From NCBI GenBank assembly GCA_009602735.1, contig WELA01001425.1, positions 5,501 through 61,202 of the forward strand: 55,702 bases of DNA, in the 5' to 3' direction. Each line of letters begins with the position of its first letter. Position 1 is the stretch's first letter. This stretch comes from Mesotaenium endlicherianum. Its lineage: Eukaryota. Position numbers and translations under genes: made by a program. The notes below the pieces were generated by a model. It saw only the letters and a program-made list of their open reading frames with translations, was not told where the DNA came from and ran no database searches. Below, one piece after another: positions 15,964-51,379 of this stretch.

Positions 15964-16000
15964 GTGGTATCGGAGCTAGGCACTTTGGTAGCACAAGAAG

Positions 16001-21600: not shown

Positions 21601-21631
21601 CGAGACGTCGCTCTTTCTATTGGGGGGGTGA

Positions 21632-26469: not shown

Positions 26470-26622
26470 TGTCACTATGCTGACACTTAGGATTCACATA
26501 ACCGTCCCATCTGTCACTATGATGGCACTTAGGGTTCACGTAACTGTCCCTTTCTTAGGATTCACATAACCGTCCCATCTGTTACTATGCTGACACTTAG
26601 GGTTCACATAACTGTCCCTTTC
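26470..26622. repeat. ~42-bp tandem repeat (3-4 units) between pol and the extra ORF of C1
   Basis: gtcactatg.tg.cacttagg.ttcac.taac.gtccc units; absent from the same position in C2. Confidence 0.8.
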
Positions 26623-26715
26623 TCGCTCTCGCACACTAACTGTCATATATTTTCCCCTCCAACTTAAATGGAGACAGGACCTCCTGTCACCTTCCCGTGT
26701 TTACTGAAATGATTG

Positions 26716-29700
26716 TTAGGGAGGTGCTCCAGCCGCCCGAAGGTGGAACCGTTTCAACGCCCCTTTGGCATTAGTCAAATGGTCTTTAAATTCCCAAGTG
26801 TCCCTAGAGGCATCGTAACCCTTCCATCGAATGAGGTACTTCATGACATATTTAGACATTCGACGGACCGAGCGCGCGTCTAAAATCTCCTCATCCTCAT
26901 ATTCCTCAGGGTTGCCGTCCCGGATAGCGGGGACCGGTCCCGGTTGGACAGGTAACCGACCTGTGAACAGTGTATCACCTTTGATGTATGGTTCCAGGAA
27001 GGAAACATTAAAGACCGGGTGACCCTTGTATTCGGCTTACATATTCAGTTTGTAAGCATTATGACCGACACGACGCACCACCGAATATGGACCGACCCAG
27101 ACAGGGCCAAGCTCTTTCTTGACCATACCAGGAAGGTACAGGTGCTGAGAATGCAGTTTGACTAAATCGCCCTTCGAAAATGTCAGCTCCCGACGGTGTT
27201 GATTAGCGTATTTTTGTTGATTTTCTTGGGCTTTGTGCAGATTTTGTTGGACTTCTGACAGGGTGTCAGCAAACTCCTGAGTTAACAGCATGCTGACTAA
27301 AGTTCCTTTCTTGCCAGTCAGGTCTTTTAGAGAGTGCATCAGCAGGATTCAACTTCCTTGGTTTGTAGTCGATCTGGACTTGGAACTGCTCCAGAATCTA
27401 GCTCCAGCGGTTCTCTCTCCTCGACAGCTTGGACTTCTTCTAAAAGTGAGTCAGAGTTAGATGATATGTAATCACCTTAAAAGCTTTACCATGTAAGTAT
27501 GCTCTCCACTATTTGAGCACATGAATGATAGCTAGCAGCTCTTTATCATGCACTGAGTAATTAAACTCCGCTGGATTAAATTTCATAGACTCGTACAACA
27601 CAGAGTGCCAATCCTGCCGTACCTTACCATCCTTTGTGATTTTGTCAGCAGGCTGCAACAAAATAGCACCCACAGCAAAGTCAGAGGCGTCAATGACCAC
27701 CTGCACCGGTTTGCTGGGGTCATACACGGCTAGCACTGGGGCAGAACAAAGGGCATCTTTAAGGGTCTGGAAGACAGCCTGCTGCTCTTCCCCCCACACA
27801 TACCCTATGTCATTCTTACTAAGGTCAGTCAATTTACTGGCCTTTGTATAATAATTCTCAATAAATATCCTATAGTAATTAGCCAACCCGAGGAAGGATC
27901 TAACTTCAGAGACAGACTGTGGTACTGGCCAGTCCCTTATGGTCTGGACTTTCTTAGGATCCACACTGATGCCGTCTTTACTGACAACGTGGCCTAAGAA
28001 TTCAATACTTTCCTTAAAGAAATCACACTTGCTCGTTTTAGCATATTATTGATTTCTTCTCAGAATGTCCATGACTGTCTTTAAGTGTTCAGCGTGCTGA
28101 GCTTCATCTTTAGAAAAAATGAAAATATCATCCAGGAAAACTTGCACAAATTTATCCAAATAAGGCCTGAAAATGTCATTCATAGCACCCATGAAGGTCG
28201 CCGGACCATTAGTTAGTCCAAATGGCATCACGTTGAACTCATAGTGTCCATAACGTGTGCGAAAGGCAGTCTTGTGTTCATCCCCCTCAGCAATTCTGAT
28301 TTGATGATAACCACTCTTGAGATCTATCTTACTGAACACCTTAGCGCCAGACAGGGTATCGAGCAAGTCCTCGATTTTGGGTAAAGCATACTTGTTCTTT
28401 ACTGTAATTCTGTTCAGGGCTCTGTAATCCACACAAATCCGCATACTGCCATCCTTTTTCTTAACAAATAGGATGGGTGCGTCGTAAGGTGATTTACTGG
28501 GGAAAATATAACCATTTTCCTCAAGCTCTGCAATCTGTGTTTTCAACTCCTCGCTCTCCATATAAGACAAGCCATAAGTGCGTTGCCAAGGTGGCTGACT
28601 CCAGGTAATAAATCAATCCTATGATCTACTTCCCTCTTAGGTGGTAGTCCCGGAGGCATTTTAAAAACAACAGTGTACTGAGCAACAATTTTTGCAGCAG
28701 TAGGGTGCTCCGGAGGGCTTACCTTTTCCTCAACCACTTGTTCAGGTTGAGGAGGTACCTCTCTTAGCAGCAGACAGAACATTCTGTCTTCCTTCTGATT
28801 CCAGCATTTGATGAACTCCATTGCATTCAGCAATTTGCATCCTCCTGGAAGCCTCTTCTTTTCCTTCATTTGCCATCCACACAGGACAAGAGGAAGAGCA
28901 CTAGTGGGTGTCAAGTCAGTCTGCCCATCACTGGCTCCTCTCACTTTAACTGTACCTCTGCTCCAACACACTTCAGCTTCATGTCTATTAAGCCAGGACC
29001 TGCCTAGCACGAGATCATAAAAGCCAGTGTTGAGTACCTCAAATGTAAGCGTTTCAGTTAGAACTGCAATGCCAGAACCTAACTGGACCTCAATAGGCTT
29101 GGTTATAACTCCTCCCGCGATACTTGAGGCATCTCCAAGGAATATTTTTCTATTCCCTTGGGTGACAGTAGGCAGCCTTAGCCGCTTAACTAAGTCCTTG
29201 TGGATAAAGGTATGTGACGCCCCTCCGTCAACAAATGCCCTCACCTTCCTACCTGCAATCATGCAATGCAGTAGGATAGGGGGGACCGTCTTTTCTTGAC
29301 TTTCGCATTGTTCTCCTGACTTAGCAAAGAAATGTTGGACATCAAGTGAAACAAGAGCATCCAGAGTGTGCACTCTCTGGATGTCTATATTGCTGATGGT
29401 CTCCTTTATCTGGTTGTCAGGCATGCATACTGAATCCAGTTCAGCAGGACCCAAAATACCTGCTACGAGGGCAGCTAGTGACGACTCACTATCTCTAGCT
29501 TCCTCACAGTCAGTAGACTGGATTACTGACTGTTGCTGTCTTTTAAAGGCTGGTCTTTTCTCTCGACCTTCGGAAGGTGCTNTTTGACTGAACACTGTTC
29601 TCTGTAGTGGCCCAACTGCTGACAATGGTAGCAAGTGGATTTTGATGAGGCTGGTCTCGGCTTAGTCCTACCACCTCCTCTTCCATGGCTACCTCGAGAG

Positions 29701-30700
29701 TAACCACCTCTCCCCCTAGACTTTATAGCATTATACTCATACTCGTACTCATCACCCTGATCATCCTCAGCCTGGTCTCCTCCAATTGCATTGTAGGAAC
29801 CGTGGGGCTTTTTGACAATCTTAGACACCAAAGCATTACTCTGGCGCATGTGATTGAACTGCTGCTGATCCCAGGCATCAGCATCCTGGATCAAGTCAGC
29901 CAGTTTCTCATACTTCTTCTCAGCAAAATGACCAGAGACTTCGGATTTCAAGCCATACCTCAAGTATGCTATCCTACACCGTTCTGGCAAGTCTGGCTGC
30001 TTCATCATGTTCTCCTGGAACTTTTGAGCAAACTCAGCAACTGAAGTGGTCTGCTTCAGTGTTAAGGAGATCATCGCATAGATAGCTTTCTCCTGCTGGT
30101 TGATGACATCAAACTTCTCATGCAACTTCTCGACAAACTCTACCCACGTAGGATCACCGAGTTGTTGAGCCTTACGCTCTCCTTTCCAGTACAGCCACCA
30201 GTCTGCGGCACTGCCTTTCGGTAGCGCACCAGTGTGCCTGACCTTCTCAAAATCTTGCAGTTTTGGGTAGTTCTCCAGCCACTGCTCAACATCCGCGAGA
30301 AACTTGATCAGGTAATGTTTCCCTCAGGATCATAGTCCTGGGGAGGTTTCGGCTTGGGCTTACTAGGCCCTCTGCCACCACCAGTGGTTTGAGACCCCAG
30401 TTGGTCTCTCTCCCGCAGTAGAGACATTATGATTCTTTTGTCCTCCTGTTGGGACTGATACATGGTCGCCATTTGCGACTGCATTTGAACAAACAAGGCT
30501 CCCAAGTCTACGTTTTGGGGTGGTAGATTAGCAAATGCAGCAGCAGCATTGGCATCTACTCGCTGAGTACTGTCCTCAACAGTCCCTCTTGCTCCTGCAG
30601 CAGCAATTCCTGCCGCATTCAGCCGGTCACGTATTTGACCTAGGGGTACATTGAGTTGTACAGCAGGAGGTGGGTTCAGAACATTGGCCCTGGATGCCAT
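26716..30700 (-). pseudogene. C1 gag-pol remnants (chromodomain, RNase H, RT, protease, gag)
   Basis: Fragments are near-identical to the C2 pol and C3 gag; a ~1-kb integrase core is missing at 27286/27287. Confidence 0.9.
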
Positions 30701-33700
30701 GCAAGTACGACGTTATCCTAGGGACGCCTTGGTTGACCAAGCACAACCCCCAAGTTGATTGGAGGGACGGTACTATCAAGATCAAGAATGACATTACTTC
30801 AAGAATCTGTATTTTGCGCGCAATCTAGAATATCCAGACCCAAGACATCAAGAAGCCGGCACACGAGATACTATTGTTTGCCCTCCAACTCAAGAGACTT
30901 GTGAGGAAGGGACACGAGCTTCTTTTGGCCTTGATCACGCCAAAAGACATTAAGAAAGACATCGAGAGTCAAGAAGACAGCCCCCTTCCCAAGGAGATAC
31001 AAGAAGTCTTAGAGGACTACAAAGAAGTATTCTCCCTGGAAGTGCCCAAGGGCCTACCCCCCAAGAGATTCGTAGACCACAAGATAGAGTTGGAGCCCGG
31101 AAGCAAGCCCATCTCTCGACCTACGTTCAAGATGTCATACACAGAGCTAGACGAAGTCAAGAAGCAAATTAAGGAGCTACTGGACTACGGCTTCATTCGT
31201 CCTAGCAAGTCGCCATTTGGAGCCCCGGTGCTATTTGTCAAGAAGAAGGACGTACTTTGAGGATGTGTGTGAACTATCGCGCCCTCAACAAGATCACCAT
31301 CAAGAATCAATACCCGCTGCCGCGCATGGATGAGCTAATGGATCGGCTGGTTGGAGCCAAGTACTTCACGAAGATTGACTTACGGAGCGGCTACCACCAG
31401 ATTCGCATCGCAGAACCGGACATAGAGAAGACGGCATTCAGGACAAGATATGGACATTTTGAGTTCATGGTCTTGCCATTTGGACTCACCAACGCGCCAG
31501 CAACTTTCATGACTATGNTAACACACCAGCAACTTTCATGACTATGATGAACACCATATTTCAGCCCCTGCTAGACAGATTTGTGGTGGTATTCATTGAC
31601 GACATTCTCATCTACAGCAAGACCCTTGAAGAGCATGGAAGACACGTGAGAGAAGTGCTCAAAATCCTGAAGCAAAACAAGCTGTTTGCAAAGGAGTCAA
31701 AGTGCGAGTTTGCCAAACAAGAAGTGGAGTTCCTAGGTCTCCACGTGACTGCTGATGGCATCAAGATGGACCCCAAGAAGACCACGGTGGTGGAGGAATG
31801 GCCAACCCCCACGACCAAGAAAGAACTCCAGTCATTCTTGGAATTTGCCAATTGGTACAGAAAAATTCATCCAAGACTTCTCGCACATAGCAGCCCCCCT
31901 GACAGATCTACTCAAGAAGGACAGGCTATACACAAGGACCGAAAAAGAGGAAGAGGCATTTCAAGAGTTAAAGCGAAGATTGACCACATCCCTGGTGCTC
32001 ACTCTCCCAAGTCCAAACCCAGATTGGCCCTTCCACGTCATCACCAATGCATCTTCCTATGCAATAGGAGCAATCCTGCTTCAAGACCAAGGCAAGGGAC
32101 TGCAGCCCATCGCCTACGAGTCAAGGAAGATAAATCCAGCCGAGCAAAATTATACAACTACGGAGCGAGAGGCGTTGGCGATTGTACATGCCTTGAAGGT
32201 TTGGCGCTGCTACGTTGAAAAACGCAAGGTGCTGGTCACTACGGACCACGAGGCGTTGAAGCACCTCCAACGCAGCCGTATCTCTCACGGAGACAAGCAA
32301 GATGGAGTGAATACTTGCAACAGTACAACATCACGATTTAGTACCAGCCCGGCAAGACAAACCCGGCTGACCCCCTCTCAAGACTGCAATTAAATGCAGT
32401 GATGACATTCCCGAGTACAGATCTGGAAGCTCGATTTTCTGCCGCCTATGATGCGGACCCTTATTTCGCAAATGGCGAGGCAGCCCTTGACCCACACAAG
32501 AAGCAAGAAGGAAACTATTGGGTGAGACAAGACACAAGATAGAGATGCGTGCCTAATAATCAAGAGCTACAACTCTTGTTACTTCGAGAAGCACACGACA
32601 ACCCACTTGGAGGTCACTTTGGAATATTAAAGACCACGGGCGTGCTCGCAAGGACTTACTGCTGGCCAGGAATGTCTAAGCAAGTCAAGGAGTACTACAG
32701 GAGCTGCGACACATGCCAAAGAATCAAACCATCATCACAAAAGGCAGGAGGACTTCTTCAACCACTACCAATCCCCAAGACACAGTGGACAGACATCTTC
32801 ATGGACCTCATCGTGGACTTGCAAGTGACACCACGCGGCTACAATCCAATATTGACAGTGGTGGACAGACTTACAAAGATGGCTCATTTCATCCCAACAA
32901 CGACCAAGGTTACAGCACCTTAGTTAGCAAGACTCATCTTTGACAATATTTTTCGATTACATGGCCTGCTATCAAGAACAGGGTCTGATCGCGACCCGAG
33001 ATTCACAAGCCATTTCTGGAAATATCTCTTCAAGAACTTGGGTACATCGCTGGATATGTCCACTACCTACCACCCACAATCGGATGGACAAACAGAGCGT
33101 ATGAATCGTACTCTCAAGACCTCTCTAAAGGCCAACGTGTCTACTCTGGAGCAAGACTGGGACATGTACTTGACCCCTTTGGAGTTTGCCTACAACAACA
33201 CGACGCAGACCTCTACCCAAGAGTCCCCTTTCTTCCTCAAGTAAGGCTTCCATCCGATCACGCCGCTGAGCTTTACGGCTGGCCATGATGAAGTACCTGC
33301 AGCGGCAAATTTTTTGGAGACATTAGAAGAAGCCCTTGCAGCAGCCACAAGAGCTCTACAACACGCGCAAGATGCTCAAGCAAAAATGGCAAATAGGCTA
33401 GAAGAGAAATTACATACAAAGTGGGCGACGCAGTGTTACTATCATCCAAGAACATTTCCCTTAACAACAGGCCTGCCGGCAGCAAGTTCTCTCCCAAGTA
33501 TTTGGGACCCTTCAAGATAATCCAGCAAGTCAACCCAGTTGCTTTCAAGCTAGAGCTTCCCCAGACTATGCACATCGACCCCGTGTTCCATGCTTCCCTC
33601 TTCAAGCCGTATGTGCAACCTGACAACAAGTTCCCAGGACGTGTGACAAGCACACCAGCCCCAACAATAGTGGATGATCATTTGGAGTACGAAGTGGAAG

Positions 33701-35245: not shown

Positions 35246-36258
35246 GACGAGCAAAAATTCAGAGCTTTGACCTTAGCCATCCCACCCGTTTAAAATGCAC
35301 ATTAGTCACTTGACAGCCCCAGACAAGCTAAGCCCCACTGGCACATTAAAGCAGCACTAAGCAGTGACAAAACATTAAATAGGCTGCTACAATCTCCTAG
35401 ACTGAAATAAATCGACTTACCAAATAGGCGATTAACAATTAACAAAGATCTTCATATCAGCAAGTAATCTTATGGTATTTCCGTTACATGTTAAACGGCA
35501 AAGGACAATACACTAGCAGTGAATAATACTCGTAAGTCAAATGCGAGTAAACTAGCATCAATGATGCAAATCAGTAAACTCATACATAAGCAAGGTTAGA
35601 AGACAGTGCGTATCAATGGCTTCTCGCCTTGGATTCAGAGTTCTCTCAGTAAGCTGTACAAGAGAGTTGGCCTCGTTTCCGAATGCCGAACTCGAGAGCA
35701 ATGCCTAGCATATGTACATGGAATGAGTTTACTGTTCAACGGTCAGTGCGATGGCACCGCCTACCCGGGAGTTAACCACGTTGGTAGGACCTCGGTTAAC
35801 CAAATCCACCGCCATCTCCCATCATCCCGAATAGCCATCCATCATGGGGATGTCATCTGGCCATTCATCTAGCAGGTGGTACTTAGATGCATATCAAGGC
35901 AGTTCGCTGCTATCGAGCACGGAAGTCAGCTGGCTGTCAAAGAATGTGTCAGCAAGCTGACTTACGTTGACCTCAGCCTGCTGCTTTTGGCCGAGTCATT
36001 AAACTGATAATTATGTAAAGTCCAGCAGACTGATTATTAACTAAAGTTCAGCAGACTGACTACTAACTAAAGTTCAGCAGGCTGAACTAAATTAACTATT
36101 ATATTTAAATGAATATTATATCTACTAATATACTGATTCATTACAATCCCTCCAACTTAACTTGTTGTCGCCTCGACAACATTAAACTGCAAAAGCTTTA
36201 AATAAAGAAACTGACCCTGACCAGCCTCCCTTACTGACTATCTTTTCAGCCTGTCACC

Positions 36259-37935
36259 TTAAGGGGTGGTTCCTGGGGCTTCAGGATCAGGGGACGGAGA
36301 TCTGGACCTAGATCTGGACAGCCCTCTAGGTCTGTCAGCTGGCCTTCTAAAGAACCGTGTTTGCTCTAAAGTTGGTCCTCGAGGAGACTGAAGGATGGTA
36401 GCCTGCTCTTCAACCACTTGGGTGTTGATGCCCACATAGACAGGCATTCCAGTAGGATGCTGAAATACATTGGCTAGAGGTACATGCCCCTGAGCGGAGG
36501 GGGAGGCCAGCATACCTCTGGCCCACTCGCGTGTCCCTCTTCTGGCACCCCTGTCCTCTGGGGATTTCTGTCTGTGTCTGCTGCCCAGTACCGTCAGATC
36601 AGCTTCTTCCCCTGCTTGGGCAGGTGGGCTGGGGGAGCGAGCGCGGGGTCCAGTTGTCGCCATAACGGGGATCACATTCCACACACCTGATCGTGGTTCT
36701 TTAAGAATCGCCCCTACCTGTCTTTTGGTATCCTGAGTACCTGCTGCTGATGCTTCTCCTCTGCCCTGTTCTTGTTCCTCAGCCTCCTCATCCTCCTCCT
36801 TGGAGAGAGTAGAAGTCTCGTCCACTAAGTCGTCCTGCTCCCTAGTAGACATGGAGTAGTCTACTGACCTCCCTTTCTTAGGGCGCGCTGGAGGTTGCTT
36901 GGCCTTCAGCCTACTGATATCTATCCGGCCTGCATTCTTTGCCCATTTGACAAAGGCATGCTTTCCCTTAGAGAAGTACTCTCTTCCCCTCCTCCTATGT
37001 TCCTTGGTCTCTGCATTCATATTGCTCAGGCATCCATTCAGCCTGGGGTCCCAAGGGGCAATGTGAGGTGGTAGGATGAGATAGCCGTCTAGGCCATAGT
37101 GGAAGTCATCCGGTTGGGCTCGGTCACACTCCTGCTTCTTATTTGTGACGGTCATCCACCTCCAGTCTGTTGGCTGCTGGTAGTACTGGGGTCCGTGCTC
37201 AGCCTTCCTCAGTTTACACGGGAACCAGTGGGGAGAGAACATCTGCTGTCCTGCTTCCCTGGCCAAGTACTCCCAGCTCCTTCTCTCAACTTCATTGTAA
37301 GCTGGCAGGAGTGTGAGGTAGAATACCGTATCCTTAAAGCTATCGGGCCGCATGCTCACCATCCGGATGAGTCTCTGATCTCCCACTATTCCCGGTATGG
37401 GGACCGGCTTGTCCTCTGAATCATCTGCGAGATACCGGGCCTGCTCTGCTGTATAGCCCACCATCTTAGCATAATCTTCGTAAAGGACCACGCCGGTGTG
37501 TGTCTCGATGTACCTGTCCAGTGCTGTAGCTCCTTCCTTCTGTAGCAGTGTTGTCTGTTCCAGCCTGTTGATCTCCTGGGCTGCCAGCAATGCTTCCTTC
37601 AGGTTATCGAAGTTTTGGCCACCCACCACAGTATACCTGTAAGTGGCCAAGCTCTTCTGTCTGTCCGCTTCAATCTTTTTTCTTTTCTCCTCTTCTGCCG
37701 CTGCCGCTTCTTCTTGCTGTTTCTTCTGTCTCTCCTCCTCAGCCTTCCTGAGGTTTTCCGCTTCCTGATCCTTCTTCCTCTGTGCCTCTTCTGCCGCCTC
37801 TTGTTGTTTGCGGACCCTTTCTTGTTCTCTCCTGGTGAGGGACGTCGCCGCCAGCTCCTTCTGGTATTGCTCCATTGTCCTCCTGGCTTCTTCTGCCTTG
37901 CGCTTTCTGTCCTCCTTTTGTGTGGTGGGCGCCAT
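36259..37935 (-). CDS. Extra ORF (eORF) of retrotransposon family C, 558 aa, unknown function: coiled-coil N-terminus, globular core, acidic/low-complexity C-terminus
   Basis: Long uninterrupted ORF in the element's sense orientation between pol and the PPT. The ATG directly follows a TACTAAC...TGCAG acceptor. A diverged homolog in C3 conserves YRYTV, MVGYT, IPGI, DSFKD, PTDWRWMT and LPPHIA.WDPRL. Confidence 0.85.
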   Translation of the reverse strand: MAPTTQKEDRKRKAEEARRTMEQYQKELAATSLTRREQERVRKQQEAAEEAQRKKDQEAENLRKAEEERQKKQQEEAAAAEEEKRKKIEADRQKSLATYRYTVVGGQNFDNLKEALLAAQEINRLEQTTLLQKEGATALDRYIETHTGVVLYEDYAKMVGYTAEQARYLADDSEDKPVPIPGIVGDQRLIRMVSMRPDSFKDTVFYLTLLPAYNEVERRSWEYLAREAGQQMFSPHWFPCKLRKAEHGPQYYQQPTDWRWMTVTNKKQECDRAQPDDFHYGLDGYLILPPHIAPWDPRLNGCLSNMNAETKEHRRRGREYFSKGKHAFVKWAKNAGRIDISRLKAKQPPARPKKGRSVDYSMSTREQDDLVDETSTLSKEEDEEAEEQEQGRGEASAAGTQDTKRQVGAILKEPRSGVWNVIPVMATTGPRARSPSPPAQAGEEADLTVLGSRHRQKSPEDRGARRGTREWARGMLASPSAQGHVPLANVFQHPTGMPVYVGINTQVVEEQATILQSPRGPTLEQTRFFRRPADRPRGLSRSRSRSPSPDPEAPGTTP

Positions 37936-38201
37936 CCTGCACATGTAACCAGGGCACAAGTTAGTAGGATATGGACCTTTGTCATAGGGATTGCAGGAAG
38001 TATGTTAGTATTCAGTATAGTGGCTTCGTTGCTGTTTACCTTACAGGATGATTGCTAAAAGTTGACGTAGTTGCGATGCGCTACACATGAACGTATGAGT
38101 GTGTTTTTTTGCTCTCGCTCACTAACTGTCATATATTTTCCCTTCCAACTTAAATGGAGACAGGACCGCCTGTCACCTGCCCGTGTCAACTGAAATGACA
38201 G

Positions 38202-41200
38202 TTATGGAGGGACTCCAGCGGCCCGAAGGTGGAACCGTGTCAACGCCCCTTTGGCATTGGTTAAGTGGTCCTTAAACTCCCAAGTGTCCCCAGAGGCATC
38301 GTAACCCTTCCATCGAATGAGGTATTTCATGACATATTTAGACGATCGACGGACCGAGCGAGCGTCTAAAATCTCATCGACCTCATATTCCTCAGGGTCG
38401 CCGTCCCGGACAGCGGGGACCGGTCCCGGTTGGACAGGGAACCGACCTGTGAACAGTGTATCACCTTTGATGTACGGTTCCAGGAAGGAGACATTAAAGA
38501 CCGGGTGCCCCTTGTATTCAGCTGACATGTTCAGTTTGTAAGCATTCTGACCGACACGACGGACCACCGAATATGGACCGACCCAGACAGGGCCAAGCTT
38601 TTTCTTGACCACACCAGGGAGGTACAGGTGCTGAGAATGCAGTTTGACTAAATCCCCCTTGGAAAATGTCAGTTCCCGACGGTGTTGATTAGCGTATTTT
38701 TGTTGGTTTTCTTGGGCCGTGTGCAAGTTCCGTTGGACTTCTGACAGGGTGTCAGCAAACTCCTGAGTTAACTGGAGGGAGACCGGGTTGTCAATCCCTT
38801 CGGGGTGAGTTAAGGATTCCCCTAGTGCATCTACAGGAGACTTAGGGACTCTACCCAGGCTTAGTTCAAAAGGAGTTTTGCCCGTTGACGCGTGCACCGC
38901 ACTGTTGACCGCAAACTGAATTTGAGGTAACAGGTCATCCCAATTATCTTGTTTCTGGTTAATACATGCTCTCAGCAACTCTTGCAGGACTCGGTTAGTT
39001 CTTTCAGTCTGCCCATCAGTCTGAGGGTGGTTTGCTGTGCTGAGCAGCTGTTTGACTCCCATTAACCCCATTAAAGCTCTCCAGAACTTAGAGGTGAATT
39101 TTGAGTCTCTGTCTGAGATGATATTAGAAGGGAGCCCATGTTGGCATACTACATGGTTGTAAAACTGTCTCGCTGTTTCGAGTGCAGTCACTTTGACAGT
39201 TGTGGGGATAAAAATGACCATTTTTGTTAGTTTATCCACGACTACCAGTATTGAATCATGCCCGTTGGCAGTTCTTGGTAGTGAGACCACCCAGTCCATG
39301 GATATAGTTTCCCAGCGTCCCGCGGGGATGGGTAGCGGTTGCAAGAGACCTCCGGGTGGTGTGTGCCGAGACTTATTTCTGAGACACTGGTCACAGGACT
39401 TGACATATTTCAAGACCTCCCGGGGTAACCCCTCCCAATGATAATGTTTTGCCAGTTTGCCAACAGTTTTGGCCTGCCCCAAATGTCCACCCAGGAGACT
39501 GTCATGAGCTTGACTCAGTAAGAGAGACCTTATTTCCAAATTATTAGGAATGACCAGCTTCAGCCTGCCTGAAGTGGTTTCAGTCACCCAGACCCCTCCC
39601 TTGAGCTTATACCCGAGTGCAGTAGCACGACACACACCAGTAGTGGGGCTGGGCTCAAATGTTGGGTCAGAAAGGTAGGCTTTCCTAAGTTGTTCAAGGA
39701 AGGACTTTTTCACCTTTAGTGAAGTGAGTGCACACAGGACTTTATCTACAGCATGCTGACTAAAGTTCCTTTCTTGCAAGTCAGGTCTTCTAGAGAGTGC
39801 ATCAGCAGGATTCAACTTCCCTGGTTTGTAGTCGATCTGGACTTGGAACTGCTCCAGCATCTGGCTCCAGCGGTTCTCCCTCCTCGACAGCTTGGACTTC
39901 TTCTGAAAGTGGGTCAGAGCTAGATGATCTGTAATCACCTTAAAAGCTTTACCATGTAAGTATGCTCTCCACTGTTTGAGTACATGAATGATAGCTAGCA
40001 GCTCTTTATCATGCACTGAGTAATTAATCTCCGCTGGATTAAATTTCATAGACTCATACAACACAGGATGCCACTCCTGCCGTACCTTACCATCCTTTGT
40101 GGTTTTGTCAGCAGGCTGCAACAAAATAGCACCCATGGCAAAATCAGAGGCATCAGTAACCACCTGCACCGGTTTGCTGGGGTCATACACGGCTAGCACT
40201 GGGGCAGAACAAAGGGCATCTTTAAGGGTCTGGAAGGCAGCCTGCTGCTCTTCCCCCCACACATACCCGATGTCTTTCTTAGTAAGGTCAGTCAGTTTAC
40301 TGGCCTTTGTGGAATAATTCTCAATAAATCTCCTATAGTAGTTAGCCAACCCGAGGAAGGATCTAACTTCAGAGACAGACTGTGGTACTGGCCAGTCCCT
40401 TATGGTCTGGACTTTCTTAGGATCCACACTGATGCCCTCTTTACTGACAACGTGGCCTAAGAATTCAATACTTTCCTTAAAGAAATCACACTTGCTCATT
40501 TTAGCATACAAGTGATTTTTCCGCAGAGTGTCCAGCACTTTCTTTAAGTGTTCAGTGTGCTGAGCTTCATCTTTAGAGAAAATTAAAATATCATCCAGGA
40601 AAACTTGCACAAACTTATCCAAATAAGGTCTGAAAATGTCATTCATAGCACCCATGAAGGTAGCAGGAGCATTAGTCAGTCCAAATGGCATCACGTTGAA
40701 CTCATAGTGTCCATAACGTGTGCGGAAGGCAGTCTTGTGTTCATCCCCCTCAGCAATTCTGATTTGATGATAACCACTCTTGAGATCTATCTTACTGAAC
40801 ACCTTAGCACCAGACAGGGTATCAAGCAAGTCCTCGATTCTGGGTAAAGCATACTTGTTCTTTACTGTAATTCTGTTCAGGGCTCTGTAATCCACACACA
40901 TCCGCATACTGCCATCCTTTTTCTTAACAAATAGGATGGGTGCGCCGTAAGGTGATTTACTGGGAGAAATATAACCATTTTCCTCAAGCTCTGCAATCTG
41001 TGTTTTCAACTCCTCGCTCTCCACATAAGACAAGCCATACGTGCGTTGCCAGGGTGGCTGACTCCCAGGTAATAAATCAATCCTATGATCTACTTCCCTC
41101 TTAGGGGGTAGTCCTGGAGGCATATTAAATACATCCGTGTACTGAGCAACAATTTTTGCAGCAGTAGGGTGCTCCGGAGGGCTTACCTTTTTCTCAACCA

Positions 41201-42011
41201 CTTCTTCAGGTTGAGGAGGTACCTCTCTTAGCAGCAGACAGAACATTCTGTCTTCCTTCTGGTTCCAGCTTTTGACGAACTCCATTGCATTCAGCAACTT
41301 GCATCCTTCTGGAAGCCTCTTCTTTTCCTTCATTTGCCATCCACACAGGACAAGAGGAAGAGCACTGGTGGGTGCCAAGTTAGTCTGCCCATCACTGGCT
41401 CCTCTCACTTTAACTGTACCTCTGCTCCAACACACTTCAGCTTGATGTCTATTAAGCCAGGACCTGCCTAGCACGAGATCATAGAACCCAGTGTTGAGTA
41501 CCTCAAATGTAAGCGTTTCAGTTAGAACTGCAATGCCAGAACCTAACTGGACCTCAATAGGCTTGGTTATAACTCCTCCCGGGATACTTGAGGCATCTCC
41601 AAGGACTATCTTTGTATTCCCTTGGGTGACAGTAGGCAGCCTTAGCCGCTTAACTAAGTCCTTGTGGATAAAGGTATGTGACGCCCCTCCGTCAACAAAT
41701 GCCCTCACCTTCCTACCTGCAATCATGCAATGCAGTAGGATAGGGGGGACTGTCCTTTCCTGACTTTCGCATTGTTCTCCTGACGTAGCAAAGAAATGTT
41801 GGACATCAGGTGGAACAAGAGCATCCAGAGTGTGCACTCTCTGGACGTCTATATTACTGATGGTCTCCTTTATCTGTTTGTCAGGCATGCATAGTATATC
41901 CAGTTCAGCAGGACCCATAATACCTGCTACGAGGGCAGCTAGTGACGACTCACTATCTCTAGCATCCTCACAGTCAGTAGACTGGATTACTGACTGTTGC
42001 TGTCTTTTAAA
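38202..42011 (-). CDS. pol: Pol of element C2 (PR-RT-RNaseH-IN-chromodomain)
   Basis: FVDGGASH protease, MPFGL/FLDD RT, TDAS, HHCC/DDE integrase, GPY, and an EYEVDEIL...[14 protein letters not shown] chromodomain; the frame is open from the slippery site at 42005-42011. Confidence 0.95.
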
Positions 42012-42947
42012 GGCTGGTCTTTTCTCTCGACCTTAGGCAGGTGCTTGACCGGACACTGTTCTCTGTAGTGGCCTGTCTGCTGACAATGGTATGCAAGTTC
42101 AAGGCCCACGATGGACTACTTGGAAATGCATCTACAACATAAGAATGGGGGTGAAAAGGAGGCTTTCAAGACTTACACTCCCACATAGGTATCTGTAATG
42201 AATCAGTATACTGGTCGATCTAATATTCATTTGAATAACATAGTCAAATAAGTTCAGCCTGCTGAACTCTACTTAACAATCAGTCTGCTGGACTTTATAC
42301 TTAATATCAGTTTAATGACTTGGCCGGAAGTAGCAGGCTGAGGTCACCTTAAGTCAGCTTGCTGACACATTCTTTGACAGCCAGCTGACTTTCGTACTCG
42401 GTAGCAGCGAACTGCCTCGATATGCATCTAAGTGTGGTATGCTAGATGAATGGCCAGATGACATCCCTATGATGGATGGCGATTCGGGATGATGGGAGAT
42501 GGCGGTGGATTTGGTTAACCGAGGTCCTACCAACGTGGTTAACTCCCGGGTAGGCGGTGCCATCGCACTGACCGTTGAACAGTAAACTCATTCCATGTAC
42601 ATATGCTAGGCATTGCTCTCGAGTTCGGCATTCGGAAACGAGGCCAACTCTCTTGTACAGCTTACTGAGAGAGATCTGAATCCAAGGCGAGAAGCCATTG
42701 ATACGCACTGTCTTCTAACCTTGCTTATGTATGAGTTTACTGATTTGCATTATTGATGCTAGTTTACTCGCATTTGACTTACGAGTATTATTCACTGCTA
42801 GTGTATTGTCCTTTGCCGTTTAACCAGTTAACGGAAATACCATAAAGATTACTTGCTGATATAAAGATCTTTATTAATTGTTAATCCCCTATTTGGTAAG
42901 GCGATTCATTTCAGTGGTATCGGAGCAGTTATCACAGTCTTCTTTGT

Positions 42948-44442
42948 ATGGTAAGGACAAGGTCTCAAACTAGCAACTCCCGAGACATGGAGAACCAGGA
43001 GAACGAGAATGTCGAAAACCAGGCGGAAAGCCATGTAGCGGGAAACCGTACCTATTCGGAAGCAATAGCAGATACTGCAGCTAGGGAGGCTGCAGAGGAG
43101 GCAGCTACTATTGCCTCAGTCGCAGCTCAGCAAGCTGAGGAGGAGAGAGCCTGGCTAGAAGCTGAACAAGTAGCAAAGGCCGCTGAAGATACAAAAAGGA
43201 GGGAAAGACAGTCAGCTGACGAGCACACTGTCGAGGAACTCATGGCATCAAGGGCCAATGTTCTGAACCCACCCCCTGCTGTACAACTCAATGTACCCCT
43301 AGGTCAAATACGTGACCGGCTGAATGCGGCAGGAATTGCTGCTGCAGGAGCGAGAGGGATTGTTGAGGACACTACTCAGCGAGTAGATGCCAATGCTGCT
43401 GCTGCATTTGCTACACTACCACCCCAGAGTGTAGACTTGGGAGCATTGTTTGTTCAAATGCAGTCGCAAATGGCGACCATGTATCAGTCCCAGCAGGAGG
43501 ACAAAAGAATCATAATGTCCCTACTGCAGGACAGAGACCAACTCGGGTCTCACACCACNCGGGTCTTACACCACTAGTGGTGGTGGCCGAGGGCCTAGTA
43601 AGCCCAAGCCGAAACCTCCCCAGGAACATCATCCTGAGGGGAACAGAAAATACTACCTGATCAAGTTTCTCGCGGATGTTGAGCAGTGGCTGGAGAATTA
43701 CCCAAAACTGCAAGATTACGAGAAGGTCAGGCACACCGGTGCGCTACTGAAAGGCAGTGCCGCAGACTGGTGGCTTTACTGGAAGGGAGAGCGTAAGGCT
43801 CGGCAACTCGGTGACCCTACGTGGGTAGAGTTTGTCGAGAAGTTGCATGAGAAATTTGACGTCATCAACCAGCAGGAGAAAGCTATCTATGCGATGATCT
43901 CCCTGACACTGAAGCAGACCACTTCAGTTGCTGAGTTTGCTCAAAAGTTCCAAGAGAACATGATGAAGCAGCCAGATTTGCCAGAACGGTATAGGATAGC
44001 ATACTTCAGGTATGGCTTGAAATCCGAGGTCTCTGGTCATTTTGCTGAGAAAAAGTATGAGAAACTGGCTGACTTGATCCAGGATGCTGACGCCTGGGAT
44101 CAGCAGCAGTTCAATCACAAGCGCCAGAGTAACGCTTTGGTGTCTAAGATTGTCAAAAAGCCCCACGGTTCCTACAATGCAGTTGAAGGAGACCAGGCTG
44201 AGGATAATCAGGGTGATGAATATGAGTATGAGTACAATGCTATTCAGTCAAGAGGTAGAGGTAGTTCCTCTCGAGGTGGCTATGGAAGGGGTGGTGGTAG
44301 GACTAAGCCGAGACCAGCCTCAGCAAAATCCACTTGCTACCATTGTCAGCAGGAAAGGCCACTACAGAGAACAGTGTCTAGTCAAGCACATGCCCAAGGT
44401 TGAGAGAAAGACCAGCCTTTAAAAGACAGCAACAGTCAGTAA
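42948..44442 (+). pseudogene. gag: C3 gag (frameshift in the zinc knuckle; another apparent break at an assembly N)
   Basis: MVRTRSQ start, LLKGSAADWW, KQTTSVAEF; the CYHC knuckle is disrupted by a 1-nt insertion relative to C2. Confidence 0.85.
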
Positions 44443-47400
44443 TCCAGTCTATTGATTGTGAGGATGCCAGAGATAGTGAGTCGTCACTAGCTGCCCTCGT
44501 AGCAGGTATTATGGGTCCTGCTGAACTGGATTCACTATGCATGCCTGACAACCAGATAAAGGAGACCATCAGCAATATAGACGTCCAGAGAGTGCACACT
44601 CTGGATGCTCTTGTTCCACCTGATGTCCAACATTTCTTTGCTACGTCAGGAGAACAATGCGAAAGTCAGGAAAAGACAGTCCCCCCTATCCTACTGCATT
44701 GCATGATTGCAGGTAGGACGGTGAGGGCATTTGTTGACGGAGGGGCGTCACATACTTTTATCCACAAGGACTTAGTTAAGCGGCTAAGGCTGCCTACTGT
44801 CACCCAAGGGAATAGAAAAATATTCCTTGGAGATGCCTCAAGTATCCCGGGAGGAGTTATAACCAAGCCTATTGAGGTCCAGTTAGGTTCTGGCATTGCA
44901 GTTCTAACTGAAACGCTTACATTTGAGGTACTCAACACTGGCTTTTATGATCTCGTGCTAGGCAGGTCCTGGCTTAATAGACATCAAGCTGAAGTGTGTT
45001 GGAGCAGAGGTACAGTTAAAGTGAGAGGAGCCAGTGATGGGCAGACTGACTTGGCACCCACCAGTGCTCTTCCTCTTGTCCTGTGTGGATGGCAAATGAA
45101 GGAAAAGAAGAGGCTTCCAGAAGGATGCAAGTTGCTGAATGCAATGGAGTTCGTCAAAAGCTGGAACCAGAAGGAGGACAGAATGTTCTGTCTGCTGCTA
45201 AGATAGGTACCTCCTCAACCTGAAGAAGTGGTTGAGAAAAAGGTAAGCCCTCCGAAGCACCCTACTGCTGCAAAAATTGTTGCTCAGTACACTGATGTAT
45301 TTAATATGCCTCCTGGACTACCCCCTAAAAGGAAAGTAGATCATATGATTGATCTATTACCCGGGAGTCAGCCACCTTGGCAACGCACTTATGGCTTGTT
45401 TTATGTGGAGAGCGAGGAGTTGAAAACACAGATTGCAGAGCTTGAGGAGAATGGTTATATTTCTCCCAGTAAATCACCTTACGGCGCACCCATCCTATTT
45501 GTTAAGAAAAAGGATGGCAGTATGCGAATGTGTGTGGATTACAGAGCCCTGAACAGAATTACAGTAAAGAACAAGTATGCTTTACCCAGAATCGAGGACT
45601 TGCTTGATACCCTGTCTGGCGCTAAGGTGTTCAGTAAGATAGATCTCAAGAGTGGTTATCATCAAATCAGAATTGCTGAGGGGGATGAACACAAGACTGC
45701 TTTCCGCACACGTTATGGACACTATGAGTTCAACGTGATGCCATTTGGACTGACTAATGCTCCTGCTACCTTTATGGGTGCTATGAATGACATTTTCAGA
45801 CCTTATTTGGATAAGTTTGTGCAAGTTTTCCTGGATGATATTTTAATTTTCTCTAAAGATGAAGCTCAGCACACTGAACACTTAAAGAAAGTGCTGGACA
45901 CTCTGCGGAAAAATCACTTGTATGCTAAAATGAGCAAGTGTGATTTCTTTAAGGAAAGTATTGAATTCTTAGGCCACGTTGTCAGTAAAGAGGGCATCAG
46001 TGTGGATCCTAAGAAAGTCCAGACCATAAGGGACTGGCCAGTACCACAGTCTGTCTCTGAAGGCAGATCCTTCCTCGGGTTGACTAACTACTATAGGAGA
46101 TTTATTGAGAATTATTCCACAAAGGCCAGTAAACTGACTGACCTTACTAAGAAAGACATCGGGTATGTGTGGGGGGAAGAGCAGCAGGCTGCCTTCCAGA
46201 CCCTTAAAGATGCCCTTTGTTCTGCCCCAGTGCTAGCCGTGTATGACCCCAGCAAACCGGTGCAGGTGGTTACTGATGCCTCTGATTTTGCCATGGGTGC
46301 TATTTTGTTGCAGCCTGCTGACAAAACCACAAAGGATGGTAAGGTACGGCAGGAGTGGCATCCTGTGTTGTATGAGTCTATGAAATTTAATCCAGCGGAG
46401 ATTAATTACTCAGTGCATGATAAAGAGCTGCTAGCTATCATTCATGTACTCAAACAGTGGAGAGCATACTTACATGGTAAAGCTTTTAAGGTGATTACAG
46501 ATCATCTAGCTCTGACCCACTTTCAGAAGAAGTCCAAGCTGTCGAGGAGGGAGAACCGCTGGAGCCAGATGCTGGAGCAGTTCCAAGTCCAGATCGACTA
46601 CAAACCAGGGAAGTTGAATCCTGCTGATGCACTCTCTAGAAGACCTGACTTGCAAGAAAGGAACTTTAGTCAGCATGCTGTAGATAAAGTCCTGTGTGCA
46701 CTCACTTCACTAAAGGTGAAAAAGTCCTTCCTTGAACAACTTAGGAAAGCCTACCTTTCTGACCCAACATTTGAGCCCAGCCCCACTACTGGTGTGTGTC
46801 GTGCTACTGCACTCGGGTATAAGCTCAAGGGAGGGGTCTGGGTGACTGAAACCACTTCAGGCAGGCTGAAGCTGGTCATTCCTAATAACTTGGAAATAAG
46901 GTCTCTCTTACTGAGTCAAGCTCATGACAGTCTCCTGGGTGGACATTTGGGGCAGGCCAAAACTGTTGGCAAACTGGCAAAACATTATCATTGGGAGGGG
47001 TTACCCCGGGAGGTCTTGAAATATGTCAAGTCCTGTGACCAGTGTCAGAGAAATAAGTCTCGGCACACACCACCCGGAGGTCTCTTGCAACCGCTACCCA
47101 TCCCAGCGGGACGCTGGGAAACTATATCCATGGACTGGGTGGTCTCACTACCAAGAACTGCCAACGGGCATGATTCAATACTGGTAGTCGTGGATAAACT
47201 GACAAAAATGGTCATTTTTATCCCCACAACTGTCAAAGTGACTGCACTCGAAACAGCGAGACAGTTTTACAACCATGTAGTATGCCAACATGGGCTCCCT
47301 TCTAATATCATCTCAGACAGAGACTCAAAATTCACCTCTAAGTTCTGGAGAGCTTTAATGGGGTTAATGGGAGTCAAACAGCTGCTCAGCACAGCAAACC

Positions 47401-48227
47401 ACCCTCAGACTGATGGGCAGACTGAAAGAACTAACCGAGTTCTGCAGGAGGTGCTGAGAGCATATATTAACCAAAAACAAGATAATTGGGATGACCTGTT
47501 GCCTCAAATTCAGTTTGCGGTCAACAGTGCGGTGCACGCGTCAACGGGCAAAACTCCTTTTGAACTCAGCCTGGGTAGAGTCCCTAAGTCTCCTCTAGAT
47601 GTGCTAGGGGAATCTTTAACTCACCCTGAAGGGATTGACAACCCGGTCTCCCTCCAGTTAACTCAGGAGTTTGCTGACACCCTGTCAGAAGTCCAACGAA
47701 ACTTGCACACGGCCCAAGAAAACCAACAAAAATACGCTAATCAACACCGTCGGGAACTGACATTTTCCAAGGGGGATTTAGTCAAACTGCATTCTCAGCA
47801 CCTGTACCTCCCTGGTGTGGTCAAGAAAAAGCTTGGCCCTGTCTGGGTCGGTCCATATTCGGTGGTCCGACGTGTCGGTCAGAATGCTTACAAACTGAAC
47901 ATGTCAGCTGACTACAAGGGTCACCCGGTCTTTAATATCTCCTTCCTGGAACCATAAATCAAAGGTGATACACTGTTCACAGGTCGGTTACCTATCCAAC
48001 CGGGACCGGTCCCCGCTGTCCGGGAAGGCGACCCCGAGGAATATGAGGTTGATGAGATTTTAGACGCTCGCTCGGTCCGTCGATCGTCTAAATATGTCAT
48101 GAAGTACCTCATCCGATGGAAGGGTTACGATGCCTCTGGGGACACTTGGGAATTTAAAGATCAGCTGACCCATGCCAAAGGGGCGTTGAAACGGTTCCAC
48201 CTTCGGGCGGCTGGGGCACCTCCCTAA
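44418..48227 (+). pseudogene. pol: C3 pol with two premature stops (45204-45206, 47955-47957)
   Basis: Nearly identical in translation to the C2 pol. Confidence 0.92.
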
Positions 48228-48547
48228 CAGTCGTTTCCGTTGACACGGGAAGGTGACAGGAGGTCCTGTCTCCATATAAGTTGGAGGGAGATGTGACAGT
48301 TAGTGACAGTTGTGACAGGCAGCCCACCTTTAAATTTAAGTTGGAGGGAGTGGTAGTCTCTGATCACCATATTACCCACTCAACCTGCGCTCACACTCAC
48401 TTGCTCTCCAAATTTTTCCTTATAGTCGCTCACACCAGGTATTCCACTCTAGGAACTCTCTCGATCGCGTCCCTCTTCATCAAGGACACTCAGTTGCGGC
48501 AAAATATCATGACTTCACTAACTGCATTGTGTTTATGATTGAGCAGG

Positions 48548-49649
48548 ATGACTCAAAAGTCGGAACTCAAGAGGAAGCGAAGGGCGGAAGAGGCACATGC
48601 AGAATACTTGCGATTCCGTGGAGACATCGAATCATCTTCCATCACCGCTCGGGAATCACAACGACTCCAACAACAGCGGGAGGCACAGAAGAAGAAGGAG
48701 GAGGAACAGGCCAGACTGAGGCAGGAAGAAATGGACAGAAAAGCTGCAAAGGAGGCTAAGAAAGCAGAGGAGGAGAGGCAAGCTGAGGAGAAGCGGAAGC
48801 AGCAGGCTGAAGAAGAAGAACAGAGGAGAATCAGCAGCTACCGCTACACAGTGCTGGGCAAGGGCTTTGATCTACTGGAGGAGGCCTTCAAGTATGCCCA
48901 GAGAAGTCGCAGTGAGTCGCAGAAGGAAATCCTCCAGAAGGAAGGGGAGACATCCGAAAATTTTGACAAGTATATAGAGGTCGGCACAGGGCTCCTCCTC
49001 TACCACGATTACGCCAGGATGGTAGGATATACCATCGGAGAGGCCAAGGCAATGGGCCAGGTGAACGAAGCAGGAGCAGTCTCGATTCCTGGAATCTGGG
49101 GGACAGATAGGGTCATCAGGATGATCCCCATGGACGCGGACAGCTTCAAGGACTCAACACCCCACAACAGGTTCAAGGCCATGTANNNNNNNNNNNNNNN
49201 NNNNNNNNNNNNNNNNNNNNNNNNNNNNNNNNNNNNNNNNNNNNNNNNNNNNNNNNNNNNNNNNNNNNNNTTGGTACCCTTGNTGTACCCTCAAAAAGAC
49301 AGACGCTGCCTTCTTCCAAAAGCCCACTGATTGGCGGTGGATGACCATCAACATGAGGGACCAGCAGAATGACAGGGCGACGGATGAGGATTTCCTGACA
49401 GACCTAAACGGGAACATAGTATTGCCCCCTCACATTGCGGCTTGGGACCCAAGATTGGATGGAGTCAGAGACTGCATGAGCCAAGAGATGCAGGGGGACA
49501 GAAGCAGGGCCCGAGAGTCATTCTCCAAAGGGAAGCACGCTTATGCCAAATGGGCAAGTAAGCAGGGGGAAAAGGACCTCTATGCGGTCCGGACTCAGCA
49601 GCCCCCACCAGCACCCAAAAGGGGAAGGTCAGTAGGATATTCTTTTTCT
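48548..49649 (+). CDS. Divergent allele of the family C extra ORF (3' end in an N-gap)
   Basis: MTQKSELKRKR...YRYTVLG...DYARMVGYT...IPGIWG...DSFKD...KPTDWRWMT...LPPHIAAWDPRLDG...FSKGKHAYAKWA...PKRGRSV aligns along its length with the C2 eORF. Confidence 0.8.
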
Positions 49650-50832
49650 NNNNNNNNNNNNNNNNNNNNNNNNNNNNNNNNNNNNNNNNNNNNNNNNNNN
49701 NNNNNNNNNNNNNNNNNNNNNNNNNNNNNNNNNNNNNNNNNNNNNNNNNNNNNNNNNNNNNNNNNNNNNNNNNNNNNNNNNNNNNNNNNNNNNNNNNNNN
49801 NNNNNNNNNNNNNNNNNNNNNNNNNNNNNNNNNNNNNNNNNNNNNNNNNNNNNNNNNNNNNNNNNNNNNNNNNNNNNNNNNNNNNNNNNNNNNNNNNNNN
49901 NNNNNNNNNNNNNNNNNNNNNNNNNNNNNNNNNNNNNNNNNNNNNNNNNNNNNNNNNNNNNNNNNNNNNNNNNNNNNNNNNNNNNNNNNNNNNNNNNNNN
50001 NNNNNNNNNNNNNNNNNNNNNNNNNNNNNNNNNNNNNNNNNNNNNNNNNNNNNNNNNNNNNNNNNNNNNNNNNNNNNNNNNNNNNNNNNNNNNNNNNNNN
50101 NNNNNNNNNNNNNNNNNNNNNNNNNNNNNNNNNNNNNNNNNNNNNNNNNNNNNNNNNNNNNNNNNNNNNNNNNNNNNNNNNNNNNNNNNNNNNNNNNNNN
50201 NNNNNNNNNNNNNNNNNNNNNNNNNNNNNNNNNNNNNNNNNNNNNNNNNNNNNNNNNNNNNNNNNNNNNNNNNNNNNNNNNNNNNNNNNNNNNNNNNNNN
50301 NNNNNNNNNNNNNNNNNNNNNNNNNNNNNNNNNNNNNNNNNNNNNNNNNNNNNNNNNNNNNNNNNNNNNNNNNNNNNNNNNNNNNNNNNNNNNNNNNNNN
50401 NNNNNNNNNNNNNNNNNNNNNNNNNNNATTTGGTTAACCGAGGTCCTACCAACGTGGTTAACTCCCGGGTAGGCGGTGCCATCGCACTGACCGTTGAACA
50501 GTAAACTCATTCCATGTACATACGCTAGACATTGCTCTCGAGTTCGGCATTCGAAGACGAGGCCAACTCTCTTGTACAGCTTACTGAGAGAGATCTGAAT
50601 CCAAGGCGAGAAGCCATTGATACGCACTGTCTTCTAACCTTGCTTATGTATGAGTTTACTGATTTGCATCATTGATGCTAGTTTACTCGCATTTGACTTA
50701 CGAGTATTATTCCCTGCTAGTGTATTGTCCTTTGTCGTTAAACCAGTTAACGGAAATACCATAAAGATTACTTGCTGATATAAAGATCTTTATTAATTGT
50801 TAATCGTCTATTTGGTAAGTCGATTCATTTCA

Positions 50833-51379
50833 GTATCTCTAGATGAAAGACAGCCTCTTGAGTGATGTATACCACCTTAACATTTTCACAAGGTGTAAGT
50901 AAATCTTGTTCCCGTGTGCTACAGCTGGGGCAGGTAGGCACATAGGCACCCAAATGATCGCTCAACGGTTTCTTGTGCTCCTCTATGAGTGTGTCAGAAT
51001 GAGCTGACATGAGCGGGCTGAAATCTATCGCTAAATCGGCAAGCTGAGTTCTCGCGCATGCCCAGTTGTCTTCTCTCTGCTCATTAACTCTCTCACCTCT
51101 ACTCTGGTCATTACCTCTCTGACTACAAGGAAGTACATAGCTAGCTGAGGAAAAGGAGGAGGCATTGACCTCGTCGAAGTGACCCTCATGTTGCATACTA
51201 TCAGATTGAAAATCACGAACATTTCTTTCCTCACTAGACTCCGCCACCCGCTTTCGAGATATTGTTTGAAATGAAGTGCTTGCTGGCTGAACTGAATGAG
51301 AACCAAAACCTTTGTACCAATTCCTAGATAACTTAACAAAAGGTAATTTATTAAACCCTTTTGAAAGCAGGCCCTCCAT
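50833..51379 (-). pseudogene. Cys-cluster (CxC-like) protein relic, possibly a KDZ/Zisupton-type transposase; continues at 42092-42193 across the C3 insertion
   Basis: With C3 removed at its TSD the frame reads CPSC...CENVKVVYITQEAVFHLEIPMWECKS*KPPFHPHSYVVDAFPSSP. The resemblance to KDZ-associated CxC domains is from memory only. Confidence 0.4.

Follow-up and report, generated by a model that had tools for sequence, protein, structure and literature searches.

A Ty3/gypsy chromovirus family of Mesotaenium endlicherianum carries one of two deeply diverged, conserved orphan genes, which recombination likely put on one backbone

The locus studied here is a window of 55,702 nucleotides from Mesotaenium endlicherianum (assembly GCA_009602735.1, contig WELA01001425.1, positions 5,501 to 61,202 of the forward strand), and it raises the question of how copies of one retrotransposon family with similar backbones came to carry extra open reading frames (ORFs) so different from each other. 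Base-by-base comparison of three copies (C1, C2, and C3) shows that members of a multicopy Ty3/gypsy chromovirus family carry one of two deeply diverged, conserved orphan genes, and we consider it likely that recombination put both of them on one backbone.

Self-comparison of the window revealed two long terminal repeat (LTR) families, and the family in question comprises three long copies and one LTR end at 55631. Pfam matches to gag, protease, RT, RNase H, integrase, and a chromodomain were found, and this set of domains (gag-PR-RT-RH-IN with a chromodomain) identifies the family as a Ty3/gypsy chromovirus. Indeed, LTRs, a target duplication, a primer-binding site (PBS), a polypurine tract, and gag followed by PR-RT-RH-IN were all present (Table 1). 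The chromodomain lies at the C terminus of the integrase (PF00385; E, 2e-10 in C3 and 2e-8 in C2), and in both copies it has the Tyr, Trp, and Tyr/Asp motif at positions that we take to be those of the aromatic cage. The closest matches of the full-length RT-RNase H region, among the best 120 of 6358 hits, were about 60% identical. In passages of PMC6317226, aromatic-cage chromodomains are described as restricted to algae, mosses, and club mosses (non-seed; Chlamyvir or Tcn1 type), and the Tcn1 clade as mostly self-priming, without a tRNA PBS. The aromatic-cage residues agree with a chromovirus of the algal and non-seed plant type and suggest that the host is probably a green alga or non-seed green plant. 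The tRNA-type PBS that follows the 5' LTR of our family speaks against assignment to the Tcn1 clade.

Table 1. Coordinates of the features in the window
Feature	Position	Strand	Basis or remark
C3 element	42194-50832	+	Self-comparison
C3 left target-site duplication, 5 bp	42189..42193	+	Letters same as 50833-50837
C3 5' LTR, 720 nt, TG...CA	42194..42913	+	394/405 identical to visible 3' LTR
C3 primer-binding site	42915..42926	+	Sequence; presumably initiator-Met-tRNA-like
C3 gag	42987..44403	+	Pfam Ty3_capsid, Retrotrans_gag; broken at single N (43559), small duplication
C3 pol (protease, RT, RNase H, integrase, chromodomain)	44382..48227	+	Pfam; in-frame stops at 45204 and 47955
Shared flank, locus-specific	47870..48305	+	92.0% identical, all three pairs
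First GTGACAGG...polypurine-tract-like motif	48253..48290	+	Common to type a
Three TGACAG repeats (starts 48294, 48304, 48313)	48294..48318	+	Homology with type a ends at 48305
Second GTGACAGG...polypurine-tract-like motif	48312..48350	+	Type b only
Predicted 108-nt intron before type b ATG	48439..48546	+	GT donor, CTAAC at 48518, CAG acceptor
C3 extra ORF type b, first part: charged N terminus and core block 1	48548..49185	+	
85-N gap inside type b ORF	49186..49270	.	
C3 extra ORF type b, core block 2	49272..49649	+	
778-N gap covering type b end, 3' polypurine tract, and 3' LTR start	49650..50427	.	
C3 3' LTR, visible part	50428..50832	+	
C3 right target-site duplication	50833..50837	+	
C2 element	35403-42098	-	Truncated at about 42098
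C2 pol, 1276 codons open	38202..42032	-	Pfam, self-comparison
C2 type a cassette, 1934 nt	36186..38119	-	3' edge from contigs leaving at 36181-36185
Predicted 103-nt intron before type a ATG	37937..38039	-	Signals in sequence
C2 extra ORF type a, intact, 558 aa	36259..37935	-	N terminus (1-95) charged, core 96-362, low-complexity tail
C2 hairpin and terminal polypurine tract	36146..36185	-	Fold z, -2.15 (C2) and -3.33 (C1)
C2 3' LTR	35403..36145	-	
C1 element	23710..30701	-	5'-truncated; about 1 kb of integrase missing
C1 extra ORF type a	24534..26211	-	One frameshift, three internal stops; DNA 91.9% identical to C2
Ribosomal protein L22 gene	about 3812-5503	+	One intron; solved-structure matches

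All three copies have a sense extra ORF behind pol, which is of type a in C1 and C2 and of type b in C3. Extra ORFs of the eORF-3'F (aORF-3S) class are sense ORFs of at least 250 codons between pol and the 3' LTR, and that of C2 has 558 codons. In the YRYTV..DSFKD block, for which the first-pass annotation had given 53 of about 107 residues as shared, we counted 54 identical codons among 103 aligned, which confirms the half-identity. Together with the block after the 85-N gap of C3 (57/109), the proteins of the two types are identical at 111 of 212 positions (52%), and tblastn gave 48.6% and 49.6% identity. The DNA had been described as unalignable by eye; this holds for the 5' noncoding part of C3 (48306-48547), for which no local alignment with type a was obtained, whereas the coding part could be aligned by machine at 57 to 62% identity.

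Between the two types, pN was 0.30 and pS was 0.77, and 16 of 43 four-fold sites were identical, which amounts to synonymous saturation; for pol of C3 and C2, dS was 0.06 overall (range, about 0.02 to 0.215). The a/b split of the extra ORF is therefore much more ancient than its present backbone. Besides, the C1 and C2 extra ORFs gave a dN/dS of 0.19 for the core and 0.42 for the tail, and the comparisons gave no sign of positive selection, with dN/dS below 1 throughout. Both types are under purifying selection, as had been proposed earlier from motif conservation. They are, however, paralogous subfamily types and not alleles at one locus, the term used in the first-pass annotation.

The last motif shared by the copies ends at 48305 in C3, at 38120 in C2, and at 26634 in C1. 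In the flank before this edge, each pair of copies is 92.0% identical (401/436, 401/436, and 405/440), and C3 has private letters at 47937, 47957, 47994, 48026, and 48035. Within the extra ORF, C1 and C2 remain at 91.9% (1542/1677), whereas C3 falls to about 60%. Similarity between C2 and C3 resumes in the visible 3' LTR (95.8% over 407 nt). The abrupt stop just after the polypurine-tract-like motif and the return of similarity in the LTR, both reported in the first-pass annotation, were thus reproduced. Judging from the distances among the three copies, the relationships of the module and of the backbone are discordant. Since the flank is equal in all pairs and C3 alone drops in the ORF, these values argue for a graft rather than fast evolution.

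The opposite view is that no exchange occurred and that, once the copies had separated, positive selection drove rapid change of the extra ORF where it stood. Passages of PMC6317226 indeed describe extra ORFs as the parts of plant LTR retrotransposons that vary most. However, the synonymous sites are saturated too and dN/dS is well below 1; moreover, C1 and C2 differ by the same 8% in the extra ORF as in the flank, so that the ORF evolves no faster than its flank. The probability of evolution in place is thus close to negligible. The incongruence of flank and ORF in three copies and the synonymous saturation between the types uphold the exchange of an anciently diverged accessory module, as claimed before.

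Identity between the C2 and C3 backbones varies by segment: 96.8% at 44332-45449, 99.4% at 45450-47440, 97.0% at 47441-47869, and 92.0% at 47870-48305. Pol of C2 and C3 differs at 32 of 1274 codons, and that of C3 has two in-frame stops. Given this uneven distribution of differences, the near-identical backbones reported earlier are an overstatement for this pair. Within the block 45450-47440, 805 nt are without a mismatch; 11 mismatches over 405 sites separate the two LTRs of C3, a rate at which 805 clean bases have a P of about 2e-10. This is too clean for the age of C3, which points to assembly fill or gene conversion, and the block was probably filled from the common sequence of the family or recently converted. 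In this region, C3 showed 0 differences from the three listed contigs of sequencing run X8 over 629 nt (46900-47866). The true backbone identity of C2 and C3 is 92 to 97%, and C3 is 93 to 97% identical to C1 in most gag windows. Near-perfect identity of neighboring repeats in gap-filled assemblies can thus be an artifact.

A sharp edge in one copy might also arise if C3 were an assembly chimera, in which a type b fragment of another family was joined to the pol and LTR of this family across gaps. The scaffold is of a short-read style, being interrupted by nine runs of N and showing a small duplication where a single N stands; in central pol, C2 and C3 look as if one source had been used to fill both, and the 3' junction of C3 lies within the 778-N gap. 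On the other hand, the 5-bp target duplication of C3 matches on both sides, and no N occurs from 43560 to 49185, so that the type b junction lies in gap-free sequence. We further compared contigs from seven different sequencing runs, aligned to C3 or C2 (a few dozen listed of about 13,600 and 18,400 records). The type b junction was spanned by contigs covering 48207-48367 in X1 and 48247-48411 in X8, and 12 contigs of X1 departed at 48288 into type a sequence. A 1475-nt contig of X6 spanned the type a junction, and in both X6 and X9 a contig departed from C2 at 38140, its unaligned end matching all 30 letters of C3 48290-48319. Both junction forms therefore occur in several sequencing runs. 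With study P1 left out as a possible source, the type b junction was present in studies P3 and P5, which have two other organism labels; the spanning contigs of X1 and X8 and the branches in X6 and X9 thus come from three studies, or from two with P1 left out. A chimera is highly improbable on these grounds, and the chimeric C3 that the first-pass annotation had named as refuting its reading is not borne out. In 20 of 24 listed runs, from 7 studies, at least half of the words sampled from C2 36200-39200 were present.

The contigs also bear on the far side of the cassette. In X6 and X9, they departed at 36185, 40 nt ahead of the LTR, which is likely the 3' edge of the cassette; they are not assignable to type b, since C3 has an N gap there. 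At 36181-36185, 17 contigs of X1 departed upstream of the terminal hairpin with an agreement of only 0.48, and more than two upstream sequences may therefore join at this point (further cassette types or deleted derivatives). One contig of X9 has a loose end matching C3 49157-49186 (27/30) and aligns to type a at 37255-37296 (42 nt); it continues into the stretch of the 85-N gap of C3, so that the type b frame continues there. Over this 42-nt island, the type b contig is at least 90% like type a, as against about 60% for the rest of the ORFs, which may be explained either by local conversion or by strong conservation of a motif.

A further alternative takes type b as a separate subfamily with its own moderately diverged pol, in which the chromodomain end and the LTR alone were exchanged and the remaining likeness is due to assembly fill. 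Type b is linked to only the last few hundred bases of pol: among the contigs and reads listed, the link reached the chromodomain end and none extended to RT or RNase H. Besides, contig assembly loses rare variants, and the 99.4% block is itself suspect. The identities of C3 to C2 at 44332-45449 (96.8%) and to C1 in gag nevertheless speak against a separate pol, as do single unbranched pol contigs of 911 nt in X6 and 569 nt in X9. Furthermore, at a likeness of at least 90%, the depths of types a and b sum to that of pol: in X1, the summed contig depth, which is no copy number, was 885k for pol (17 bins), 560k for type a (10 bins), and 320k for type b (9 bins), with 880k for a and b together. 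In X9, the depths were 71.2 for pol and 47.5 for type a, and type b contributed about one-fourth to one-third of the depth in X1, X6, X8, and X9. We thus regard a separate subfamily as distinctly unlikely.

The graft remains our preferred explanation, and the junction suggests how it may have come about. In all copies, the pol stop is followed by GTGACAGG and then a near-copy of the terminal polypurine tract, and type b has a second such motif (Table 1). This duplication is seen in the sequence, and the second motif is likely the scar of the graft; it can be read as the post-pol motif of the donor kept beside that of the recipient, in which case type b would be the grafted one. We infer that, most likely, an older sister family was the source of one of the types, which was acquired when reverse transcription switched templates between RNAs packaged together. 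The join was likely at the TGACAG repeats beside the internal polypurine-tract-like motif. TGACAG, which we take to resemble a KNOX/BELL homeodomain site, has a background of 0.85 per kb when both strands are counted. The flanks would afterward be kept homogeneous up to the homology edge by crossovers in pol and the LTR, and the sharp edge would then mark the end of homology and need not be a hotspot. According to passages of PMC6894440, template switching needs donor-acceptor homology and shuffles copies of LTR elements. DNA gene conversion is an alternative to template switching that would give the same picture here. No donor family or related loci for the cassette were found among metagenome and viral contigs.

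Two candidate signals at the edge were rejected. The hairpin ahead of the terminal polypurine tract is significant in both C2 and C1 (Table 1), but the folds before the internal tracts are not (z, -0.58 to -1.66), and an internal hairpin was dropped as a breakpoint signal. A type-b-specific rise in divergence beside the cassette was absent in the chromodomain, where C1, C2, and C3 have 12, 11, and 9 private letters, respectively (48000-48249). At the cassette edge, C1 is longer than C2 by about 235 nt (26400-26633) that include short tandem repeats containing GACAG, so that the edge is a variable repeat array. In X1, seven contigs enter the start of type b (48293) from other, GTGACA-rich upstream sequence (median, 15 letters), which may be a variant of the repeat array or a junction of the donor family.

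The same graft could be combined with active maintenance of the two types, as specificity variants of an antisilencing factor or transactivator under frequency-dependent selection or host conflict, along the lines suggested in the first-pass annotation; this reading supplements the graft and does not replace it. Types a and b occur together in X1, X6, X9, and X15 (the last with pieces of both), type b holds its quarter to third by depth, and the core is conserved in both types. Besides, the U3 start of C3 has 8 private letters in its first 60 nt as against 10 in the other 648 (P, 4e-5). This window was, however, picked after looking, and the signal is weak because C1 and C2 carry equal clusters elsewhere in the LTR (8 in 60 each). 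Positive selection was not seen, and a single capture followed by drift, or a neutral capture, fits equally well. Active maintenance is thus possible but rather doubtful. We regard as unlikely the strongest form of this idea, a single recombining population in which a new trans-acting regulator is kept in two ancient forms of different specificity. Each form would fit a U3 variant of its own and would be exchanged as a cassette bounded by an internal and the terminal polypurine tract, which would amount to a balanced polymorphism within a transposon and across related hosts.

The extra-ORF protein has a charged N terminus and a conserved core of about 270 residues; its tail is of low complexity and contains basic clusters as well as Ser/Arg repeats. 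The maximum 19-residue hydropathy was 0.73 for type a (whole) and 0.75 for the visible parts of type b; no transmembrane segment is present, and the protein is not env-like. A word-indexed homologue search found nothing with the 558-residue protein (lengths, 306 to 977) or with the alignment (64 to 469), HMMER gave 0 hits at an E of 0.001 against 1.84 billion representatives, no Pfam family was above the cutoff, and the best PDB sequence match had an E of 0.08. Among 79, 5, and 249 pattern matches in metagenome and viral contigs, none was confirmed, and an exact look-up returned 0 of 4. The best Atlas scores of 0.79 and 0.86 are leads only, those of 0.86 being unnamed and mostly from basidiomycete clusters. 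The structure models were unusable (mean pLDDT, 34.7 and 43.6), with no Foldseek match at an E of 0.001. A by-eye resemblance to the RNase H1 N-terminal motif or a helix-turn-helix motif was dropped for lack of Pfam support. From its composition and by analogy with CERV and the extra-ORF protein of maize Grande, which is nuclear (reviewed in PMC7264820), we tentatively suggest that the protein might be a nuclear, nucleic-acid-binding trans regulator of transcription or RNA export of the element, made from a separately spliced message.

In both types, a predicted intron of 103 to 108 nt runs from a GT donor through a branch-like CTAAC to a CAG acceptor, with one base left before the ATG, and these splice-like signals are equally placed although the DNA between them is unalignable. 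CTRAC plus CAG-N-ATG occurs ahead of 7 of the 1840 ATGs in the window, and three of the seven are the extra-ORF ATGs. We checked one poly(A) run per type. In X22 (about 6% read), 71 reads were found, none of them over type b 48594-49185, and in X23 (about 12% read), 52 reads, none of them over type a 36228-38051; no splice joint for the predicted introns was among the rows listed for the two runs. The reads of both runs were 90 to 99% alike and hence derive from other copies. Poly(A) reads at the pol end (47829-48516 in X22 and 38166-39400 in X23) lay mostly on the strand that is usually antisense to the element, and they look like read-through from a truncated copy elsewhere. No RNA run was among the listed holders of words of C2 36200-39200. 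In X15, the deepest contig (depth, 539) joins window position 48266 to 37862, at about codon 25 of the type a ORF. This join in one contig is a deletion of about 300 nt, which takes away the ATG together with the predicted intron and the internal tract, and it hints that a derivative lacking the start of the ORF has been amplified; the extra ORF may therefore be dispensable in cis.

The copies lie among host genes and other elements. The L22 gene has solved-structure matches, of which the highest-scoring ones are presumably plant entries, and an exon at about 6720-6950 on the minus strand looks by eye like the C terminus of what we take to be a band-7 or hypersensitive-induced-reaction protein. 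A second chromovirus family, with a pol 44% identical to that of the family described here, occupies 15461-22134 and 30701-35246; it has one full-length copy with a 5-bp target duplication and is without a long extra ORF. At 30701, a partial copy of this second family directly meets C1 at its truncated 5' end, and no LTR separates the two, possibly because of an assembly join. At 54439-55548, a 369-codon gag-like frame with a zinc knuckle belongs to another element and is followed by the fourth LTR end, at 55631.

Sense extra ORFs after pol are already known, as is module swapping (Ty1 gag and retroviral env). In the passages of PMC7264820 and PMC6317226, the eORF-3'F (aORF-3S) of plant LTR elements has the same position and orientation, is kept across copies, and encodes heterogeneous orphan proteins, and predicted splicing is shared with barley Bagy2. 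Extra ORFs are typical there of Athila/Tat and SIRE, and those passages do not name chromoviruses. Unlike the known ones, the ORFs described here have no transmembrane segment and occur as two saturated types on one backbone. The function of extra ORFs in plant retrotransposons is an open question (PMC7264820). A literature search, mostly outside subscription journals, found neither an internal polypurine tract in plant LTR elements nor two extra-ORF variants in one family.

Some animal elements also make accessory proteins by way of spliced messages. CERV of Caenorhabditis elegans Cer1 is, in the part of PMC10309623 consulted, a novel nuclear protein from a spliced message that exports unspliced genomic RNA, and it is a functional analogy only. 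The ORF3s of bdelloid LTR elements are likewise novel accessory proteins with spliced messages, described as family-specific in sections of PMC5408684. No likeness in sequence to CERV or the bdelloid ORF3s turned up in our homologue searches.

The closest parallel in mechanism is yeast Ty1/Ty1', in which, according to excerpts of PMC7055915, a divergent module came onto a shared backbone by recombination, with discordant trees and both forms in one genome. There, however, the module is gag, the donor is S. paradoxus, and copy number control was tested, whereas here the module is an accessory ORF. In endogenous retroviruses, the 3' gene between pol and the LTR (env) is similarly exchanged by template switching or ectopic recombination (parts of PMC10536682), but our extra ORF has no envelope features and no receptor or host-range rationale. 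Thus, an orphan, non-env extra ORF in a chromovirus, with two synonymously saturated types on one backbone, appears to be new, although the supplements of PMC6317226 may hold chromovirus cases. Two natural versions, 52% identical and on one backbone, provide a built-in comparison that marks the conserved residues of an orphan protein, and they make it possible to try either protein on either LTR. The likely graft described here would bring an env-style exchange of cassettes, as known from retroviruses, to a chromovirus.
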